The notes: generated by a model from the letters alone, not told the origin. A DNA stretch of 64,000 bases from Anaerolineae bacterium (GCA_027021705.1 JALUTT010000073.1:37993-101992), one strand, 5' to 3'; positions 12,026 through 20,778 are shown, numbered from the stretch's first letter. A program made the numbers and translations.

Positions 12026-15000
12026 TTACGGCCACCAGCGGCCTACATCTTGGATGGCCTGGAAGGTCCCGACAATGGCCTCTGGTCCGCCCAGGGCGTA
12101 GATAAGGGGGGCGAGGGCGCTCAGGTCGGAGAGGAGGTCCCGGCGGGTGCGCCGGGCGAGTGTGTGGAGCGTCTCCCGCCAGAGATCGTGGACGGCGTTT
12201 CGGTTCCGCTTTGCCCAGTTGGCCAAAGGGGAGGCCAGTGCCGAGAGCATCTTTCCCCGGGCACGGGTGTTCTCAACGTCCCGGGCGATCCTCAAAGTCT
12301 CCTTCAGGTCTTCTCTCGGGAGCATCTGCGGCAGGGAGGAGGCCAACTCTTCCAGTGCTTCGGCCTGTCTCTCAGCGTCCTTCTCCTCTCGCAGCGCGTC
12401 CAGAGCGTTCCGCAGAGCGTGTTCCTGCTCCGGCTCCGGCAGGTGGGGGATCAGACGGGCCAGAACCTGAACCCGCCGGGTCGGCCGGACGATCTCCTCC
12501 GTGGCCATCATAGCCTCTAGGAGTGCCTGCCTCCGTAGCGCTTCCGGCGGATGGAACAAGGCCAGTTCCCGAAGTTCCTCGGCTCGCGTGGCCGCATCGG
12601 AGATCCCTCGGATCGTGGAGAGGGCCTCCAGCCAGCGGCCTTGTCCTGCCATAAGGCGTGCAATGGCCCTCAACACGCGATCGAACTGCCTCCTGGACCC
12701 ATTGCCCCGAAGCGTTGGGGCAGCCCTCGCGACTTCCCATAGCATGGTCTCCCACGGGGAAAAGGCCGGTTCCTCTCCCATTTCCCAGAGTATTTGCTGC
12801 CGTAGGGCCGCAGGAAGGTAGGAGAGGTGAAGCAGTTCCCACACCACAGAGGCTTGGATCCAAGGGTCCTCAATCCCTCGTGCCGCTTCCCACGCTTCCC
12901 ATAGGGCCTCTTCCCGTTGCGGAGGGGGCAGGTGGGCGGCCAACACCCGCAGAGTCTGGGCTCGCAGACTCTTGTCCTCGATCTCCCCCGCCGCCGACAG
13001 AGCTTTCTGCTGGACACCTTCTCGCAGCGTCGCCTCCGGGAAGTTGTGAGAGAGCAATCTTAGCAGGGCGTCAGCTTGCTGCCATGGGTCCTCGATCTGC
13101 GAGGCCGTTTCCACAGCTTCCTGCAGGGCCTCCTGTTGTCGTGGCTTCGACTCCTGCTGTTGTGACTCCGACTCCTGTTGTCGTGGCTCTGAGAGGTGGA
13201 GAGCCAGTTGCGCCAGCAGGTTGACCCGTAGGTAGGGGTCCTGGACGTTCCGGGTGGCTTGCCAGGCGTTCTGAAGGGCCTTTTCGCGATCCTGGGCTGA
13301 GAGATGGGGGGCAATGTCGGCCAGAGTCTGTGCCCGCCGGTACTCGTTGGTGATTTCGCGGGCTGCGGCCAGGGCCTCCTGGAGGGCCGCCCCCCGCTCC
13401 CCCCCCGCCAAGTGACGGGCCAGCTCGATCAACGTCCTGGCTTGTGCACCCCTATCCCCGATGCCCTGGACGGTTGCCAGAGCCTCTTGGAGAGCCCGCT
13501 TGCGGGGGGATGGCGGCAAGCGAGGAGCCAGTTCCAGGAGCACCTCCACCCGTGTCCGGGGGTCTCGGACCTCCCGGGCCGCCGTCAACGCCTCCCGGAG
13601 GACTTGTTGCCGTGCCGATTTCGACAAGTAGTAGGAGGTAGCCAGGTGCAAGAGCGTGCGGGCCCGAACCGGCGCGTCCCGAATCTGCCGCGCTGCGACC
13701 AGCGCTTCCGTGATGTAACCCTGTCTCGCCAGGCGCCGGACTTGGGTCTGGGGTAGCTCGACAGGCATCGTCCTTCTCCGAAGCACCGAGGCGGCTTTCT
13801 GGATCGCTTGCAAAGCTTGCTCTTCCCACTTCGGTGGGAGGTGATGGCTCAGCGCCAGGAGGGTCTCTATCCGAAGATGGGCATCTTGAATGCGCTGCGC
13901 TGCTGCCAAGGCCTCTAGACTCCGGCCCTGCTGCGCCAGACCCAATGCCCGGTCCCTGAACTCCTCATCCTGCGGGTTGCCCTCGCGGAGATCCCGGGCG
14001 GCTGCCAGCGCTTCCTCCAGGACAGGGGCGTACTGGGATGCCGGCAGATACTCGATCAGGCTGAGCAGGGCTCCGGCGCGGATCCGAGCATCCCGGATCG
14101 TTCGCGCCACGTCCAACGCCTCGCGCAGCAGCGTCTCCGGGAGGTAGGGGGCCAGGGAGGCCAGGGCCTGAGCCCGTTGCTCCTCCCGCTCGATTCCCCG
14201 GGCGGCTGTCAGCGCTTCCCGGACGGCCCGTTCTCGCTGCTCGTCCGATACGTAAGAGCAGGAAGCAAGAGCCAGAAAAGCCTCGACCTGCTCTTTGGCA
14301 TCGCGGGTATTCCGAGCTACGGCCCAGGCTCGTGCTAATAAGCGCTGCTTCCACGTTTCGTTCGGCAGGTGGGGAACCAGATCCAACAGGGCTGCTACCT
14401 GATCTGGGCCTTTTCGGATACTCCTCACAGCCCTGCTCGCTTCGTGCCAGTCTCCCTGCTCGGCCCAGTGTCGGGCCAGCATCTTCAACACGTTATCCTC
14501 TAAGCTCTCTGTCTCCTGTACGGCCGCCTGTGCAACTTGTACCGCCTTGGCTCGCAACGCTTCCGACAGGTGAGGAAACAGGTCTGCAAGCGTCCGGATC
14601 CGTATCTCCACTCTCTCGATGTTGCTGGCTATGCTCAGGGCCTCTTCCTGCAGTGCTTCCGGCGAATGGGGAGCCAGGGTTCTGAGGATTGCGGCCTTCC
14701 ATTCCTCCTCCTCAATCGCCCTCACCGTGGATAGGGCCTCCTGCCAGAGGGATTCCCGTTCCGACTCGGTTAGAGCGGGACAGGTTGCGATCTCCCGAAG
14801 TGCCTGGATCCGATCCTCGGGCCATAGAATCCCTTGGGTGGCTTTCCGGGCTTTCTTCACGGCTTCTCCCTGTTGCCTATCTGGCAGGTGGGGAATCAGC
14901 TTTACGAGCGCTGACACGCGCTCTCGTTCGTCGGCAATCCGCGATGTTGCTTCCAACACCTCCTGCAGAGTTTGCTCCCGCTCCGGTTCGGGCATATAAG

Positions 15001-17695
15001 GAGCTAGGCCGGCGAGGGCCTTGATCCGGTCATCCCTGTCCTCAATCTGCCTGGCTATGGTCCATGCCCCTTGGAGTAAGGTCTCGTCCCTCTCGAGAGA
15101 AGGAGCCAGCCCGGCGAGGGCTTCTGCCCGGACCTCGGTCCATTCGATCTGCTGAACGACCGCTAGTGCCTTTGAGAAGAGGTCTTGGGACAGATGGGGG
15201 GCCAGCTTCACCAGTGCCTCCGCCCGTTGCCCCGCGTCCGGCGCCTGCCGGGCGTAGGCCAGCCCTTGGGCCGGAGGCCACTCCTTTTTCTCCACCAGTG
15301 CCGCCAGCAGTTGTGGGGGGATGTTCTTGGCCAGGCTGTTGAGGGAGGCAGTGATGAGGGCGTAGCGGCATTGGAGGGCGATGTCCTCACCCCTCTCCCC
15401 GGCCCCCTCCCCTCTCCCACCCGGTGAGAGAGGGGAGGGGGTGGCGGCGGCCGCTGTCGGGGGTTCTTCCACCAGCCCCCAGGCTCGCGCCACGTCGGTC
15501 AGGAAGCCGTCGGTGTCTCCCACGGCCTCCTTAGTCGCGTACCAGGCGTTCTCGTGCCGGCGGCGCTGGTGGGTCCGCTTCTGGCCCGGAAGTTGGCCAG
15601 GCCGCTCCTTCGGCCCAGGGCAGGTGTAGGGCACCTCCTCTTCATGCACCCATTCCACCCGCAACAGGCGATGCAGGTCCTCCCCCCGGCCCGCCCCTTC
15701 CAAGTGGGCCGCCAGGTGGCGCAGGCCGTAGCCGCCGTCCAGGTCCCGCCTCCCCGGCTCCCGCAGCCCCGGCAGCCCCGCCTCTAGCCCGCTCCAGGCC
15801 GCCAGGTACCGGTCGGCGATGCGGGCGTGGGCCTGCTGCGTGGCCGCCGCCAGCTCCTCCGTCAGGCTCCGCTCCACCTCCGTCAGCCGCTCTAGGTCGG
15901 CCCGCCCGTCCAGGAACTCCCGCAGGCTGGCGTGGTAGAGGCGGTAGCGGCGGTCCCCTGCGGTGCCCTCCACGGCCAGGAAGGGCCGCCAGGCCTCCCG
16001 CAGTAACCGCTCCAGATCAGGCCGCACCTCCACCCCGGCCAGGGTGCAGAGCCGAGGGAAGGGGAGGGCCTCTTGGGCGGCGGCCAGGGTGCTCAGCAGA
16101 GGGAGGTAGTCGGTGTACCATCGGGGATCATCCCGCCACCGACTCCAGTACTGGGCGTAGTACTGCCACACGCCCTCCGGCAGGGTCGCCAGGTCCAGGG
16201 GGGAGCGCTCCCCGCGCTCGATCTCGCCCACCACGTAGTGCAGGTAGATCCACACCCCCCGGCATTTCTCCAGCAGCGCGGCCACGAACTGCTCCCGCGC
16301 ATACCCCTGCTCGGCCAGGGCCCGGGCCACCCCCGACCAGGTGGCGGCCGCCTCCAGGTAGGCCCGCATATCGGCCCGGTTCTTCTCGCTCTGGGCTTCC
16401 AGGCGAAAGACCCGGCGCGGCCCCTCCACCCGCAGCGTCACCGCCACCGGCCGCTGGGAGATGATGAGGTAGACGCCTTGGGGGAGCACGCGCGGCAAGC
16501 CCAGGACGTTCTGGCCCGGCGGGGTTCCGGCCTCGTCCAGGCCGTCCACCACCAGGACGATTTGCTCTCCGGGCCGCACCTCGTCCCGCTTGCGGGCCGC
16601 CTCGAAGAGCAGGTTCAGGAGGAAGTGGGGGCGGGCTGCCGAGCCGGGCAGCACCCCCTCGGCCTGATGGGGGTCGAGCAGCCAGGCCCGCACCAATTGG
16701 GCGGCCAGGTTGCGTAGGCCGGTGGCGTCGTCACCGGGGGCCAGTTCCACGAAGTGGTGGATGTACCCCTGGGTCTTCACCAGGTGGGCCAGGAAGGTGG
16801 TCTTGCCCAACCCGGCGGCGGCTTCCAGGACGAACAGACCCCGGTCGTTATCCCGCAGGAAGGCGTCCACCTCGGCGGTCAGCCACTCCCGGCCCACGAA
16901 GCGGTCCAGCTTCACCCGCTCGAAGACGGACCAAGGGGGGATGTAGGCGTCCCGCAGCCGCTCGTAATCACCGACGAAGACCCGGTTGTGGTCGCCGGTG
17001 ATGAGGATGCTATGGATGGCCTGGCCGCCGATGGAGATGCTGCACTCACCGGAGGGTTCCTCGGGCTTCTCCGGCGGGTGCAGTTCCAGAGGCTCCGGGC
17101 ACAGGGCCTGCACCGTCTCGGCGGGGATGGCGTAGGCGTAGCGTACTCTGGGAGCATCCTCTTCCTCAGGACGCCTCATATCGCGGTAACGGGTGATCAT
17201 CCCGACCACGCGCCCGGTGACGATGTCCAGCACCGGCGCGCCGCTGAGGCCCCTGTCCACTTCAGGTCCCTGGACCTGGAGTAGGCGGATGGGCCAGCCT
17301 TGCACCGGCACCAGCCCACCGATCTTCGCCTGGGGCCAGCGGGCGAGCGCAGGGCCGTCCGCCGGGTAGCCCAGGGCCTGGTAGGGATGGCCGTTGCTCC
17401 CGTGGGCCGGGCCCAAGGTGGCGGGGTGTGTTCCTTCGGGCAACACCCCAACCACCCGCAGGAAGGCCACATCCTTCTCCGGTTGCCAGCCCTTGGGGAG
17501 GACCTCGGCCTCCGCCGGTTCACCTCCAACGTGGAAGGCAAGCCGCACCCGCTTGCCCGGGCAGGCTCCGGCGGCCTCGACCACGTGCACGCAGGTCACC
17601 ACCAGGTCCGGGCGCACGAGAAAGCCGGTGCCTATCGTCCGGCCCCTGGCGTTTTCGACGCGGACAACGCAAGCCTCCAGATCCGTTGCTTCCAC
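12026..17695 (-). CDS. Trypsin-like serine protease + STAND/NACHT-like NTPase + long TPR/HEAT-like repeat protein
   Basis: Protease triad TCVHVV / DVAFL / GLSGAPV. FVGREWL, Walker A AAAGLGKTT and Walker B VVDGLDE. About 1000 aa of RAxALxxLAPHL-type helical repeats. Confidence 0.9.
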   Translation of the reverse strand: MEATDLEACVVRVENARGRTIGTGFLVRPDLVVTCVHVVEAAGACPGKRVRLAFHVGGEPAEAEVLPKGWQPEKDVAFLRVVGVLPEGTHPATLGPAHGSNGHPYQALGYPADGPALARWPQAKIGGLVPVQGWPIRLLQVQGPEVDRGLSGAPVLDIVTGRVVGMITRYRDMRRPEEEDAPRVRYAYAIPAETVQALCPEPLELHPPEKPEEPSGECSISIGGQAIHSILITGDHNRVFVGDYERLRDAYIPPWSVFERVKLDRFVGREWLTAEVDAFLRDNDRGLFVLEAAAGLGKTTFLAHLVKTQGYIHHFVELAPGDDATGLRNLAAQLVRAWLLDPHQAEGVLPGSAARPHFLLNLLFEAARKRDEVRPGEQIVLVVDGLDEAGTPPGQNVLGLPRVLPQGVYLIISQRPVAVTLRVEGPRRVFRLEAQSEKNRADMRAYLEAAATWSGVARALAEQGYAREQFVAALLEKCRGVWIYLHYVVGEIERGERSPLDLATLPEGVWQYYAQYWSRWRDDPRWYTDYLPLLSTLAAAQEALPFPRLCTLAGVEVRPDLERLLREAWRPFLAVEGTAGDRRYRLYHASLREFLDGRADLERLTEVERSLTEELAAATQQAHARIADRYLAAWSGLEAGLPGLREPGRRDLDGGYGLRHLAAHLEGAGRGEDLHRLLRVEWVHEEEVPYTCPGPKERPGQLPGQKRTHQRRRHENAWYATKEAVGDTDGFLTDVARAWGLVEEPPTAAAATPSPLSPGGRGEGAGERGEDIALQCRYALITASLNSLAKNIPPQLLAALVEKKEWPPAQGLAYARQAPDAGQRAEALVKLAPHLSQDLFSKALAVVQQIEWTEVRAEALAGLAPSLERDETLLQGAWTIARQIEDRDDRIKALAGLAPYMPEPEREQTLQEVLEATSRIADERERVSALVKLIPHLPDRQQGEAVKKARKATQGILWPEDRIQALREIATCPALTESERESLWQEALSTVRAIEEEEWKAAILRTLAPHSPEALQEEALSIASNIERVEIRIRTLADLFPHLSEALRAKAVQVAQAAVQETESLEDNVLKMLARHWAEQGDWHEASRAVRSIRKGPDQVAALLDLVPHLPNETWKQRLLARAWAVARNTRDAKEQVEAFLALASCSYVSDEQRERAVREALTAARGIEREEQRAQALASLAPYLPETLLREALDVARTIRDARIRAGALLSLIEYLPASQYAPVLEEALAAARDLREGNPQDEEFRDRALGLAQQGRSLEALAAAQRIQDAHLRIETLLALSHHLPPKWEEQALQAIQKAASVLRRRTMPVELPQTQVRRLARQGYITEALVAARQIRDAPVRARTLLHLATSYYLSKSARQQVLREALTAAREVRDPRTRVEVLLELAPRLPPSPRKRALQEALATVQGIGDRGAQARTLIELARHLAGGERGAALQEALAAAREITNEYRRAQTLADIAPHLSAQDREKALQNAWQATRNVQDPYLRVNLLAQLALHLSEPRQQESESQQQESKPRQQEALQEAVETASQIEDPWQQADALLRLLSHNFPEATLREGVQQKALSAAGEIEDKSLRAQTLRVLAAHLPPPQREEALWEAWEAARGIEDPWIQASVVWELLHLSYLPAALRQQILWEMGEEPAFSPWETMLWEVARAAPTLRGNGSRRQFDRVLRAIARLMAGQGRWLEALSTIRGISDAATRAEELRELALFHPPEALRRQALLEAMMATEEIVRPTRRVQVLARLIPHLPEPEQEHALRNALDALREEKDAERQAEALEELASSLPQMLPREDLKETLRIARDVENTRARGKMLSALASPLANWAKRNRNAVHDLWRETLHTLARRTRRDLLSDLSALAPLIYALGGPEAIVGTFQAIQDVGRWWP

Positions 17696-18036: not shown

Positions 18037-18191
18037 CGGTGATTACCCATATCTTTGGAGATAGGGAAACGAGCCGTCCACGAATGGGGCACGAATACAC
18101 GAATCAAGGACCGCCTCATTCGTGCATTTGTGAGAAATTCGTGGACGGCCTGCTACGGACCACTCTCTCGCTCCCTTGTGGGTAATCACCG
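18037..18191. mobile_element. MITE family A, copy 2 (155 bp)
   Basis: Perfect 13-bp TIR CGGTGATTACCCA. 9-bp target duplication CGATTTCCC at 18028-18036 and 18192-18200. Confidence 0.92.
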
Positions 18192-18202
18192 CGATTTCCC
18201 TC

Positions 18203-18231
18203 TTGACACAGAACAAATGTTCTGGTATCAT
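18203..18231 (+). promoter_or_regulatory. Sigma70 promoter with a LexA (SOS) box in the spacer
   Basis: TTGACA-17nt-TATCAT with extended TG. The spacer contains CAGAAC-AAAT-GTTCTG (18209-18224), i.e. GAAC-N4-GTTC. Confidence 0.82.
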
Positions 18232-18293
18232 GTAGCCAGCCCCTTCCACCGCGTGACAGGCAACCCGCCATACGCATCGCCCGAGGTGTTCCG

Positions 18294-19319
18294 ATGGCCC
18301 GCAAGACCAACCGTCAGCTCCTAGAGCTCCAGGCCGATCGCATCGAGATGGTCCTGGCCCGGCACAGGGCTCCCGCTCGCGTCGCCGGCGGTGTCGTCAC
18401 CCCCCGCTGGGTCCGCTTCCACCTGCTCCCCGCCCTGGGGACCTCCCTGGCCCGCATCAAGCGCCTCTCCGAGGAGCTGGCTCTCGCCCTGGGTGCCCCC
18501 GCCTGCCGCATCAGTCGCCGGGGAGAGCAGTTGGCCCTGGAGGTTCCCCGTCCCGACCCCCAGCCGGTGCGGCTGCTCCCTTTGCTCCGCTCCCTGGCCC
18601 CCCTCCCCTTTGGCACGGCCCTGCTGGGGCTGGCCGAGGATGGCGCTCCCCTGCTGCTCCGCTTCCCCTCCCCCGACGTGACCCACGTCCTGGTGGCCGG
18701 CACCACGGGGTCGGGCAAGACGGCCCTCCTGCGGACCATCATCCTCTCCCTGGCCCTGAGCCACCGGCCCCGCGAGTGGGGCTTCGTCTTGGTAGATCCG
18801 AAGGGCCGGGCCTTCGAGGGGCTGGCGGGGCTGCCCCACCTGGTGAGGCCCATCATTCGGGAGGTGGACGACGCCCAGAGCGTGCTGGAGGAGGTGGTCG
18901 AGCTGATGGAGCGGCGAGATCGGGAAGGGGTGGCGGAGCCCCGGCTGCTGGTCGTGGTGGACGAACTGGCGGACCTGCTGCTGGTGGGGAGACGGGGAGG
19001 GAGGGGACAGCCATCGGTGTTGCCCCTCCTGGTGCGGCTGGCCCAGCGAGGACGGGAGGCCGGGGTACACCTGCTGGTGGCGACCCAGAAACCGTCGGCG
19101 GCGGTGGTGGGGACGCTGTTGCGGGCCAACTTCCCGGTGCGGCTGGTAGGACGGGTGGCAAGCTCGGAGGATGCGCGGGTGGCGGCGGGGCGCGGGGGCA
19201 CCGGGGCGGAGCGGTTGCTGGGACGGGGGGACTTCCTGGCGGTGGCAGGCGGGCAGGTGGTGCGCTTCCAGGCAGCCTACGTAGGGCAGGACGAGATTCG
19301 CCGGTTCGGAGGTGCGTGA
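18294..19319 (+). CDS. Minimal FtsK/SpoIIIE-family ATPase (alpha + motor domains; no TM anchor or gamma domain)
   Basis: FtsK alpha-like N-terminus (LALALG...LEVP), HVLVAGTTGSGKT, LVDPKG, VVVDELADL, GREAGVHLLVATQKP and GAERLLGRGDFL. Confidence 0.9.
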   Translation: MARKTNRQLLELQADRIEMVLARHRAPARVAGGVVTPRWVRFHLLPALGTSLARIKRLSEELALALGAPACRISRRGEQLALEVPRPDPQPVRLLPLLRSLAPLPFGTALLGLAEDGAPLLLRFPSPDVTHVLVAGTTGSGKTALLRTIILSLALSHRPREWGFVLVDPKGRAFEGLAGLPHLVRPIIREVDDAQSVLEEVVELMERRDREGVAEPRLLVVVDELADLLLVGRRGGRGQPSVLPLLVRLAQRGREAGVHLLVATQKPSAAVVGTLLRANFPVRLVGRVASSEDARVAAGRGGTGAERLLGRGDFLAVAGGQVVRFQAAYVGQDEIRRFGGA

Positions 19320-19382
19320 TGAGCATCCTGGGCACGCCACGCAATGCGCCTGGCGCGACTGGAATAGGAGGCGTAACTGTTC

Positions 19383-19479
19383 ACCCTCCCGCAGGCTGGG
19401 CGCGTTTCCGACGCGAAACCGTGCTTCAAATAGCCCATCGGGGCTGCAAGCGCCCTCGACCGGTGACCTGCGGGAGGGT
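19383..19479. repeat. Inverted-repeat element family B, copy 1
   Basis: ACCCTCCCGCAGG...CCTGCGGGAGGGT ends, shared with 40047..40141 and 54333..54428. Confidence 0.75.
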
Positions 19480-19508
19480 AGGCTGAATAGATACGAGGAG
19501 GCGGTGCG

Positions 19509-19889
19509 ATGAAGGTGAGCCACTGGCTGGCATTGATGGGCCTGGCCTTCGCCCTGGCCCTGGGGGTAGTGGCGGGGATGCGGATGGAGCAGGAGGCACT
19601 GACGGTGATGATGGGGGTGGGGTGCGGGGTGGGGGCGGGGATCCCCACAGGATTGCTGGTGTGGATGGTCGCGCGAGGGCGGGAACGGCGGGGGGAGCGG
19701 GCTACCTTTCCGGCGGCTCCGGCGTCGCCGCCGGTGGTGGTGATCGCGCCGCCGGGGGGACAGCCACGGCAGTCCCGGACAAACTGGTCCGATGGCTATC
19801 CGGCGGCCTACCCGGAGACGCCGTCCTCAGCCCCTCGCCAATTCCTGGTCATCGGTGAGGACGAGGAGGTGGAGCCATGGGTGCGTTGA
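19509..19889 (+). CDS. Small membrane protein (2 TM, Pro-rich linker, acidic C-terminus)
   Basis: SD GAGGAGG. Two hydrophobic helices, PPVVVIAPP and terminal PRQFLVIGEDEE. Confidence 0.75.
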   Translation: MKVSHWLALMGLAFALALGVVAGMRMEQEALTVMMGVGCGVGAGIPTGLLVWMVARGRERRGERATFPAAPASPPVVVIAPPGGQPRQSRTNWSDGYPAAYPETPSSAPRQFLVIGEDEEVEPWVR

Positions 19890-20131
19890 TCCGTGTCGGA
19901 TGGATGTGGGTGGACAACCGCCGGGATCAGAACTTGCAGGAGAAGGTGCTGGCTGGCGCCCAGCGCTACCGGAGCAAGTTCGGACGGTCTCCCAATATTT
20001 GTTATGTCAATGCCTCGCTCCTCAACCAACCGGAGGTTGAGTGTCAGGGCGTGCGGATCATTGGAGCTTCCAACATCCCTCGCCATCACTTCTGGATGGG
20101 CGTAGTGGAAGAAGAGTCTGTGGCTCATTGA
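19877..20131 (+). CDS. Hypothetical protein (84 aa)
   Basis: Overlaps the upstream stop, has a SD and a globular-looking composition (WMWVDN...RYRSKFGRSPNICYVN...HHFWMG). Confidence 0.72.
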   Translation: MGALIRVGWMWVDNRRDQNLQEKVLAGAQRYRSKFGRSPNICYVNASLLNQPEVECQGVRIIGASNIPRHHFWMGVVEEESVAH

Positions 20132-20163
20132 TGCTGCTGGGAACCCAGGGAGGAGGGTGAGAC

Positions 20164-20778
20164 GTGCCCAAAACCGACTTTAAGAGGGAGATGAAGCACC
20201 TTTACAGGGCCTCGGCAAGGCGGGTCTCCGTTGTCGAGGTGCCCCCCTTGAACTTCCTAATGATAGATGGCCGTGGTGATCCCAACACCTCGCCCGAATA
20301 TGCCGAGGCCATCGAAGCCCTATACGCCGTCGCCTATGCGCTCAAGTTCAGGGTCAAGCGGGGCCGAGGCGTTGATTACGTCGTGATGCCCCTGGAGGGG
20401 CTCTGGTGGACCGATGATCCGGCCCACTTCGATATGGACAACCGAGAGATGTGGAACTGGACGGCGATGATTATGCAGCCGGAGTACGTGACCGAGGAGA
20501 TGTATGAGGAGGTGGTGGCGGAAGTGAGGAAGAAGAAGGCCCTCGGAGCCTTGGACAGGATGCGGCTGGAGACCTACCACGAGGGGTTGTCCGTGCAGGT
20601 CCTGCACGTAGGCCCCTACGCGGCTGAGGGTCCGACCATCGCCCGGCTGCACGCCTACATCCGAGAGCAGGGCTATCGGCCCAGCGGGAAGCACCACGAA
20701 ATCTACCTGAGCGATCCCCGGAGGACGGCACCGGAGAGGCTGAAGACGATCCTCCGGCAGCCCGTCCAGGTGGGGTGA
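20164..20778 (+). CDS. GyrI-like small-molecule-binding domain protein
   Basis: FLMIDGRGDPN, YVVMPLEGLWW, HVGPY and HHEIYLSDPRRTAPERLKTILRQPV motifs. Confidence 0.9.
   Translation: MPKTDFKREMKHLYRASARRVSVVEVPPLNFLMIDGRGDPNTSPEYAEAIEALYAVAYALKFRVKRGRGVDYVVMPLEGLWWTDDPAHFDMDNREMWNWTAMIMQPEYVTEEMYEEVVAEVRKKKALGALDRMRLETYHEGLSVQVLHVGPYAAEGPTIARLHAYIREQGYRPSGKHHEIYLSDPRRTAPERLKTILRQPVQVG

Follow-up and report, generated by a model that had tools for sequence, protein, structure and literature searches.

A predicted LexA-controlled operon for a motor-only FtsK paralogue and a small membrane protein in Anaerolineae

The subject of this report is a small operon in a 64,000-nucleotide (nt) stretch of DNA from an Anaerolineae bacterium (GCA_027021705.1, JALUTT010000073.1:37993-101992), the whole of which is called the window; positions are counted from its first letter. 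Between 18,203 and 20,131, on the + strand, a promoter carrying a putative operator of LexA, the repressor of the SOS response to DNA damage, precedes genes for a soluble FtsK-type motor of 341 amino acids (aa), a 126-aa protein with two transmembrane segments (2-TM protein), and an 84-aa protein, p84. Operator, promoter layout, conservation, and gene linkage could be established in silico. By sequence comparison, much of the class Anaerolineae sensu lato (Chloroflexota) shares the operon, and the unit is very probably under LexA control. Our favoured reading, which is held tentatively and falls somewhat short of an even chance, is that of an SOS operon for a LexA-repressed, membrane-tethered translocase of double-stranded DNA (dsDNA).

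The promoter, its operator, and their conservation

The sigma-70-type promoter (18203..18231, + strand) reads TTGACA(18203)-cAGAACAAATGTTCTGg-TATCAT(18231) and agrees with the consensus at 11/12 positions (consensus scan). Its −35 hexamer, TTGACA (18203-18208), is separated by a 17-nt spacer (18209-18225) from an extended −10 element, TG-n-TATCAT, the hexamer of which occupies 18226-18231. Within this spacer sits the putative LexA operator, the unstranded 16-nt palindrome CAGAAC-AAAT-GTTCTG (18209..18224), with the core GAAC-N4-GTTC at 18211-18222 (referred to as the box in the following); the promoter-operator stretch as a whole is cTTGACAcaGAACAAATGTTCtggTATCATg. A first-pass annotation of this DNA, made from the sequence alone, had proposed a near-consensus promoter with this very palindrome between −35 and −10, and the scan located it there; the remaining features of that annotation likewise lie at the coordinates it gave. 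That the window promoter carries a LexA-type operator placed to occlude it is a prediction well supported in silico. Three promoter-like sites were found by the same scan between 17600 and 21600, compared with 0.4 ± 0.8 in shuffled sequence. The box occurs once in the window, for which 0.52 occurrences are expected by chance, and at least one was present in 39/100 shuffles.

Since a single box is within what chance provides in one window, its significance comes from the comparison with relatives. Scored with a matrix derived from 49 boxes of relatives only (the host genome's own site being excluded), the window site ranks first across the 5.19-Mb host genome (66% G+C; 41 perfect GAAC-N4-GTTC boxes genome-wide) with 30.6 bits, followed by sites of 23.1, 22.7, and 22.5 bits. 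The site at the host lexA gene, which resides on a different contig from the window, scores 18.6 bits; the promoter there, TTGACA-taGAACGTCTGTTCacg-TATAAT followed by a second box, GAACAGACGTTT, has the same layout, in motif and position, as that of the window. The motif being present at lexA's own promoter, in the host and in 18 related loci, indicates autoregulation, which is the signature of LexA. The host protein contains an Ala-Gly site and the Ser (GDSM) and Lys residues that we take to be those expected for self-cleavage. One recA copy is preceded by the promoter TTGACA-gcagaGAACGTTTGTGC-TAAGCT. Palindromes resembling GAAC-N4-GTTC also lie ahead of a TetR-family gene (C59:69196 and 69216) and may belong to another regulator, which would fit the notion that the window palindrome is bound by a different protein, or by none, and that the unit is not damage-inducible; but with the same motif at the same position ahead of lexA, and with a host LexA equipped as described, this notion is highly improbable.

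To follow the operon beyond the host, 40 genomes of relatives, one per genus, were searched for orthologues of the motor (threshold E ≤ 1e-60). Full-length orthologues are present in 26/40 (45-63% identity, E 1e-62 to 1e-123), and a 27th genome contains two motor fragments at contig ends. The 29 loci from the 26 genomes, together with the window locus, made up the locus set (n = 30, 5-kb flanks, 290.6 kb). A perfect box stands ahead of the motor gene, or ahead of a same-strand lexA directly upstream of it, in 29/30 loci, and the 30th has two boxes with one mismatch ahead of its lexA; as these genomes are related, such locus counts are not independent events, though many families are covered. 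The TTGACA-operator-TATAAT layout recurs in 24/30 loci. Perfect boxes are concentrated in promoter zones (26.4 of the 290.6 kb), which hold 48 of the 50, or 1.82/kb versus 0.008/kb elsewhere.

In 18/30 loci, lexA adjoins the motor gene on the same strand and upstream of it; where it does not, a box is found within 140 nt of the motor gene (12/12). Most of the adjoining lexA genes (13/18; L038, L047, L051, L056, L057, and eight others) encode a divergent LexA lacking the PPT(I/V)REI motif, termed type 2, and in all of the tandem cases (5/5) the order is canonical lexA, type 2, module. A type-2 lexA was found neither at the window locus nor elsewhere in the host genome when searched for by the LexA DNA-binding domain. 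LexA regulation is well supported in silico: operator and promoter core overlap, the site agrees with the one used for autoregulation, and it has been retained throughout the clade, in many cases with the module physically joined to the lexA operon.

Gene content is conserved to different degrees. The 2-TM gene follows the motor gene in 25/27 loci (E ≤ 0.01, 1.5-kb flanks), or in 23/30 by stricter clustering (E ≤ 1e-8), so that both the box and this linkage, conservation of which the first-pass annotation had regarded as decisive, are kept in homologous loci. Less regular companions are p84 (12/30), a DUF6504 protein (8/30; PF20114, E 2.6e-9 to 4.8e-5), a small helical protein (6/30), and a Cys-rich protein of ∼130 aa encoded between lexA and the motor gene (6/30). 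By this comparison, the unit is a conserved module and not a chance grouping of genes; motor and 2-TM protein are the conserved core, and p84, DUF6504, the Cys-rich, and the small helical proteins are variable members. Profiles of the Cys-rich protein and of DUF6504 retrieved nothing below E 0.3 from the PDB. Downstream of the module, a convergent holA gene (identity read from the sequences) is present in 9/30 loci, and beside holA a gene with the motif HALEHATIH in 7/30.

Further strong LexA-type boxes occur on other contigs of the host genome (C28:56137, C10:38292, C59:15798, C52:147, and C36:42838). The second-best box genome-wide and the start codon of mraZ, the first gene of an mraZ-rsmH-ftsL division cluster, overlap. 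Among the other strong ones, one lies within the greA-lysS promoter, one 45 nt 5′ of ssb (all of these gene names being read from translations), one after the −10 element of a 460-aa open reading frame (ORF), and one forms an operator-in-spacer promoter ahead of an 86-aa membrane protein.

The motor and its membrane partner

The gene for the 341-aa motor (18294..19319, + strand) encodes the FtsK_alpha domain (PF17854, E 1.4e-7; residues 4-85) followed by a RecA-like beta domain (PF01580 FtsK_SpoIIIE, E 1.4e-36). Its alignment with FtsK of Pseudomonas aeruginosa (2iuu, E 1.9e-41) covers alpha and beta and ends where beta ends: residue 338 of 341 pairs with residue 459 of the 2iuu chain, leaving no gamma (winged-helix) domain. 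An alignment with 2ius covers motor residues 10-209. The N-terminus lies ∼10 residues ahead of the alpha domain, without the multi-pass membrane domain, and there is no hydrophobic segment anywhere in the protein (the maximal 19-residue Kyte-Doolittle mean is 1.44). Hydropathy and the 2iuu alignment thus bear out the earlier description of an FtsK of 341 aa devoid of both membrane anchor and gamma domain. Walker A (GTTGSGKT) and Walker B (DE) show no variation among family members (40/40), which argues for an active enzyme under selection. From homology, the motor is expected to form a hexameric, dsDNA-translocating ring. Some FtsK members of the SOS-linked clade (P0049, P0052, P0069, P0087, P0095, and P0103) carry a C-terminal extension of ∼100 aa, which in P0052 and P0103 reads like a winged-helix, gamma-like domain; loss of gamma is hence not universal in the family.

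Motor relatives are numerous in the protein database (at least 4146 at E ≤ 1e-30 among the 8000 candidates scored), those with a name being annotated only as "DNA translocase FtsK" and stemming from Anaerolineae, Thermoflexia, and Thermoflexales. Motor domains (n = 53) were placed in a quick maximum-likelihood tree, which is unrooted and gives no direction of descent; in it, the SOS-linked motors (n = 30) form one group (Shimodaira-Hasegawa-like approximate likelihood ratio test, SH-aLRT, 95) and the long FtsK proteins (n = 18) another (SH-aLRT 98); five other short FtsK-like proteins fall outside both. The host genome contains, besides the operon, two FtsK genes of the long kind as well as an FtsK-like gene of 424 aa. 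The latter lies in a mobile-looking region of the host contig C124 (11-22 kb), where a second ssb and a gene for a RelE-like toxin are also present. In one relative, a locus resembling a plasmid or an integrative and conjugative element (ICE) encodes a 477-aa short FtsK-like protein with DnaB and ParA but without a LexA box (L169, G013:C119). Its neighbours include a p84-like gene (hidden Markov model E 4.4e-14), a small membrane protein, and a homologue of the small helical protein (86.7 bits), a set which indicates that the module has a cousin on a mobile element. When an anti-phage defence system was sought with PADLOC, the motor matched nothing but the generic FtsK domain of SspH (8.2e-39) and mad8, and there was no match for the 2-TM protein, p84, or the GyrI-like protein encoded downstream; a defence system was rejected on these grounds.

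Streptomyces TraB and the archaeal Ced system move dsDNA by means of membrane-associated ATPases of the FtsK/HerA superfamily, Ced being damage-induced. Another role to be considered is damage-induced transfer of dsDNA between neighbouring cells, with the operon being a domesticated, LexA-controlled cousin of the TraB-type translocases of multicellular actinomycetes that would provide repair templates in the manner of Ced/Ups. Cells of a filament would pump chromosomal dsDNA across the shared septum, or pull it in, with p84, DUF6504, the Cys-rich, and the small helical proteins as accessories. The related gene set of the plasmid- or ICE-like locus L169, the winged-helix-like C-terminal extensions (a reading of sequence) in some members of the SOS clade, and the filamentous form of many members of the class would be in line with such a role. 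By sequence, however, the motor is an FtsK (127.8 bits to the nearest NCBIfam model, FtsK), scoring 32.8 bits against the TraB model NF041214 (cut-off 800) and 20.4 bits against the CedB model NF041017 (cut-off 700), so that the sequence places it in neither family and the analogies with TraB and Ced drawn in the first-pass annotation find no backing there. Moreover, unlike TraB and Ced, the motor is found in a context that is not that of a plasmid and is not accompanied by a CedA-like channel protein; clt-like repeats, Spd-like gene sets, and a multi-pass channel protein were not observed, and the SOS clade stands apart from the short FtsK-like proteins of mobile elements. We consider transfer between cells, including the version with filaments and accessories, rather improbable; were it to hold, bacteria would have a novel way of sharing DNA upon damage, a counterpart of the archaeal Ups/Ced exchange.

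The second gene of the operon (19509..19889, + strand) encodes the 126-aa 2-TM protein, which belongs to no Pfam family. Its two hydrophobic segments are modelled as a helical hairpin (helices 3-25 and 28-63), followed by a disordered, Pro-rich cytoplasmic tail (predicted local distance difference test, pLDDT, 53-71) with the C-terminal end ...PRQFLVIGEDEEVEPWVR. Residues F14, G23, G36, G40, P46, P74, R110, and G116 are invariant in an alignment of 22 sequences, and the tail contains two conserved motifs, PPVVV and PRxFxVIGE(E/D). No match was obtained in Pfam, NCBIfam, or PADLOC, and in the ESM Atlas only unnamed clusters were retrieved, the structural hits remaining below a TM-score of 0.5. 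Nevertheless, the family is large: a profile search of 1.84 billion representatives yielded 1811 representative clusters at E ≤ 0.001. The best 150 of these 1811 relatives all measure 101-258 aa, which indicates that the protein stands alone.

Whether the tail contacts the motor was addressed by complex prediction, in which the motor alignment was paired with tail residues 56-126 of the 2-TM protein (three runs and three controls). The complex scored 0.41 (0.41, 0.40, and 0.47 in the individual runs) versus 0.01 for the best control, and the runs share at least 39% of contacts. For calibration, the mark for a complex was attained by 116/157 solved complexes and 2/215 mismatched pairs, and 18/157 solved complexes as well as both passing mismatches stood at 0.60 or under. 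Conserved adjacency and this weak score together raise the odds of tethering modestly, but no more. Accordingly graded, the idea of the 2-TM protein as the split anchor of the motor, as advanced in the first-pass annotation, holds with respect to adjacency (25/27 loci) and passed complex prediction only weakly. That the two proteins are partners is somewhat more probable than the contrary; that the tail is what tethers the motor receives weak support from the model.

An intact FtsK motor without anchor or gamma domain, next to a hairpin protein with a docking-type tail, is most simply read as a split, tethered pump made on demand, and we infer that the operon would work as follows. In undamaged cells, LexA would occupy the palindrome between −35 and −10 and block RNA polymerase. 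Upon DNA damage, RecA-stimulated self-cleavage of LexA would free the promoter, and the operon would supply the soluble alpha/beta ATPase, expected to assemble into a hexameric dsDNA pump, as well as the small protein p84. The disordered cytoplasmic tail of the 2-TM hairpin, with its PRxFxVIGE motif, would hold the motor at the membrane. A motor without gamma domain should not be able to read polarity signals resembling the FtsK orienting polar sequences (KOPS), and the direction of pumping would therefore be set by the anchoring site. Its most likely role would be to keep chromosomal DNA moving at, or to clear it from, the membrane or septum during the repair of chromosomes that are damaged, unsegregated, or dimeric. 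Such chromosome rescue or clearing is a possible cellular role, put forward with less confidence than the tethered translocase itself.

p84 and the weighing of other roles

The third gene (19877..20131, + strand) overlaps the 2-TM gene by 13 nt and encodes p84, which also belongs to no Pfam family. Ten residues are invariant in the alignment (G8, W11, D13, Y31, K34, G36, P39, C42, H71, and G75), of which D13, C42, and H71 could mean a catalytic or metal site. The AlphaFold2 model (pLDDT 86.8) has the topology beta-alpha-beta4. Compared with the PDB by Foldseek, the best match had an E value of 1.0, with nothing at E ≤ 0.001; a wide VIA-align search gave HK97-type capsid proteins at best (Z 5.2, root-mean-square deviation 5.4, 79 residues aligned), which is below a meaningful level, and the ESM Atlas contained only unnamed clusters from Chloroflexota.

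A profile scan of species genomes detected 173 relatives of p84, of which 80 loci were kept, all from Chloroflexota (Anaerolineae, Caldilineae, Thermoflexales, Promineifilaceae, Bellilinea, Leptolinea, and others); in the class sample, p84 is present in 17/41 genomes. In the 64 loci with at least 2.5 kb of upstream sequence, an FtsK-like gene lies 5′ of p84 in 35, with 20 of these scoring at least 300 bits. A perfect box occurs in 47 of the 64, lexA in 24, the 2-TM gene in 20, and DUF6504 in 12. A reduced module is found in a cultured member, Bellilinea caldifistulae GOMI-1 (L125 4100-5261), with the promoter TTGACA-aaataGTACATATGTTC-TATAAT (N17 spacer) and an operator with one mismatch, GTAC-ATAT-GTTC.

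Several observations weigh against the reading of the operon as an SOS-controlled, tethered translocase. The box in the window is not significant by itself. Among the sequencing runs on record, three of DNA and none of RNA contain the stretch. The host recA site scores only 11.8 bits with the relatives-derived matrix. Full-length orthologues of the motor are missing from 14/40 relatives, 13 of which have only long FtsK genes or no match at the threshold applied, and in a phylum-wide sample orthologues at E ≤ 1e-60 are confined to 4/301 genomes, host included; the module is thus not a universal SOS function. The score of the predicted complex is in the weak range, and the fold of the partner is uncertain (pLDDT at least 38). 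The 189-nt gap between the motor and 2-TM genes is mostly filled by a 98-nt repeat element (19382..19479, + strand, CACCCTCCCGCAGG...CCTGCGGGAGGGT) that forms a long hairpin of −54 kcal/mol in the presumed transcript and could attenuate read-through. Fusions of motor and 2-TM protein were looked for as well, but only two fused ORFs turned up, both singletons with linkers like translated spacer, and a stable fusion was rejected. Finally, p84 occurs without a detectable FtsK-like gene in 29/64 loci, 16 of which have a perfect box of their own within 300 nt, and the FtsK-like protein encoded ahead of p84 in B. caldifistulae is 273 aa long and has its Walker A motif replaced (SDPEAGKM), which implies that ATP-driven pumping is not needed in every version of the module.

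The last two points lend themselves to another explanation, that of a division checkpoint, in which the small SOS-controlled proteins (2-TM protein and/or p84) would be the real effectors, delaying septation as YneA, ChiZ, SidA, or SulA do, with an accessory or scaffolding part left to the FtsK-like protein. In 16 of the 29 motor-less loci p84 would be an SOS-box gene in its own right, and the Bellilinea partner has lost Walker A. The box on the mraZ start codon and the operator-in-spacer promoter ahead of the 86-aa membrane protein likewise let LexA seem to touch division in this genome. However, catalytic motifs that are invariant in 40/40 motors argue for an active enzyme, neither small protein matches a known inhibitor family or a LysM domain, and p84 is part of only 12/30 motor loci. 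A checkpoint is therefore considered unlikely, though less so than transfer between cells.

Genomic surroundings, known counterparts, and meaning of the module

Downstream of p84, after 32 nt, starts a gene for a GyrI-like protein of 204 aa (20164..20778, + strand; PF06445, E 1.8e-18). Between 20131 and 20164 the scan revealed nothing terminator-like on the + strand, and the gene may be co-transcribed with the module in this genome; all four genes have a plausible ribosome-binding site (by reading of the sequence). The sbmC gene of E. coli is SOS-induced, and by this analogy the GyrI-like gene was tried as a conserved member of the module. It was rejected, since none of the other 29 module loci contains it and 1/80 p84 loci does, so that the doubt already voiced in the first-pass annotation as to its membership was justified (0/29).

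Two families of short repeats flank and interrupt the unit. The 98-nt element between the motor and 2-TM genes has 97 paired copies in the genome; the window copy (RNA fold, −54.3 kcal/mol) may affect read-through or transcript stability. The second family is a 153-bp repeat resembling a miniature inverted-repeat transposable element (MITE), with terminal inverted repeats GGTGATTACCCA...TGGGTAATCACC, present at 18038-18190 and again at ∼3917 of the window. It has at least 94 matches in the genome, 75 of them full copies, of which 46/75 are bordered by target duplications of 6-12 bp (GATTTCCC in the window). A −35-like TTGAC or GTCAA lies within 32 nt outside an end in 47/75 copies (peak at 12-13 nt; background 2.1%), and the element seems to insert just 5′ of promoters. 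The SOS promoter begins 13 nt past the window copy.

Divergent from the SOS promoter region, on the − strand (12026-17695), lies a gene for an 1889-aa protein with an N-terminal trypsin-like protease, a NACHT/STAND NTPase, and long helical repeats; it resembles Avs1b (PADLOC, E 2.8e-17) and is a candidate antiviral STAND protein. The other neighbours are purA, glycosyltransferases, a pfkB kinase, aroA, folB/K/E, guaA, and similar genes, which makes the context of the window chromosomal and housekeeping.

These surroundings bear on the possibility that the operon is a domesticated or decaying piece of a mobile element, with SOS control serving the element as it does in prophages and some ICEs. 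The flanking and interrupting repeats, the cousin locus L169, and the short FtsK-like gene in the mobile-like region of the host contig C124 can be quoted in its favour. Yet a scan of the 17 neighbouring genes at 4-35 kb (∼14 kb to each side) turned up none for an integrase, a relaxase, or replication, which agrees with the absence of such genes noted at the outset. The homologous loci, too, are chromosomal in context rather than parts of larger prophages or ICEs, with lexA upstream (18/30) and holA downstream (9/30) across many families, and the clade is monophyletic across the one-per-genus genomes, which fits vertical inheritance. A mobile remnant is very unlikely in view of these data.

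One known counterpart is SftA of Bacillus subtilis, a soluble FtsK paralogue without membrane segments which helps to clear DNA from the closing septum. The motor described here is likewise an FtsK paralogue lacking membrane segments. To our knowledge, SftA keeps its gamma domain, has no dedicated gene for a membrane partner, and is not a LexA target, in contrast to the present motor with its missing gamma domain, 2-TM partner gene, and LexA-type operator. The lexA2-imuA-imuB-dnaE2 mutagenesis cassettes are likewise headed by a divergent additional LexA paralogue and dedicated to the damage response, and in relatives of the host a divergent type-2 lexA similarly heads the module (13/18 adjoining lexA). 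Here, the cargo is a translocase module and not polymerases, and the host locus is without type-2 lexA. DUF6504 was followed as a lead to these cassettes and dropped, because the host DUF6504 gene adjoins an L,D-transpeptidase gene and prmA, not polymerases.

SOS control of an FtsK translocase does have a precedent, which had been missed in the first-pass annotation: in E. coli, ftsK is SOS-induced from the dinH promoter (Wang & Lutkenhaus 1998; Dorazi & Dewar 2000, both as cited in PMC4080785). As in dinH-ftsK, a dsDNA translocase of the FtsK family would be under LexA control (predicted, in the case of the window), providing more motor after damage. The E. coli protein is single, essential, and full-length, with an N-terminal domain of four transmembrane segments, a linker, and a gamma domain. 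In the host, by contrast, a motor-only paralogue of 341 aa, from a clade of its own, is found in addition to the two long FtsK genes. Its gene is accompanied by separate ones for the 2-TM protein and for small proteins, and in relatives lexA is often part of the operon. The combination of a small membrane protein and an FtsK-like motor in one operon is known from Streptomyces, where SmeA recruits the FtsK-like SffA to septa (PMC6428758); this likeness is one of layout. smeA-sffA is under developmental (sporulation) control, not that of LexA, and smeA comes first, that is, the gene order is reversed. A description of the module itself was not found in the full-text literature, a search that does not cover subscription journals. 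It is a variation on known kinds, namely, FtsK under SOS control and the pairing of an FtsK-like motor with a small membrane protein that recruits it.

Very little work has been devoted to the SOS regulons of Chloroflexota. In this genome, the strongest LexA site precedes not a repair gene but a motor-only FtsK paralogue with a private membrane partner. Many relatives have the module joined to the lexA operon, and there it often follows a second LexA paralogue. The operon gives p84, the 2-TM family (1811 representative clusters), DUF6504, and the Cys-rich protein a first functional context. Being a natural split FtsK that lacks gamma and encodes motor and presumed anchor separately, it could help to study how anchoring alone gives a pump its direction. 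The finding suggests that these often filamentous bacteria possess, throughout the lineage, a means of handling their chromosomes upon DNA damage that has so far escaped notice.

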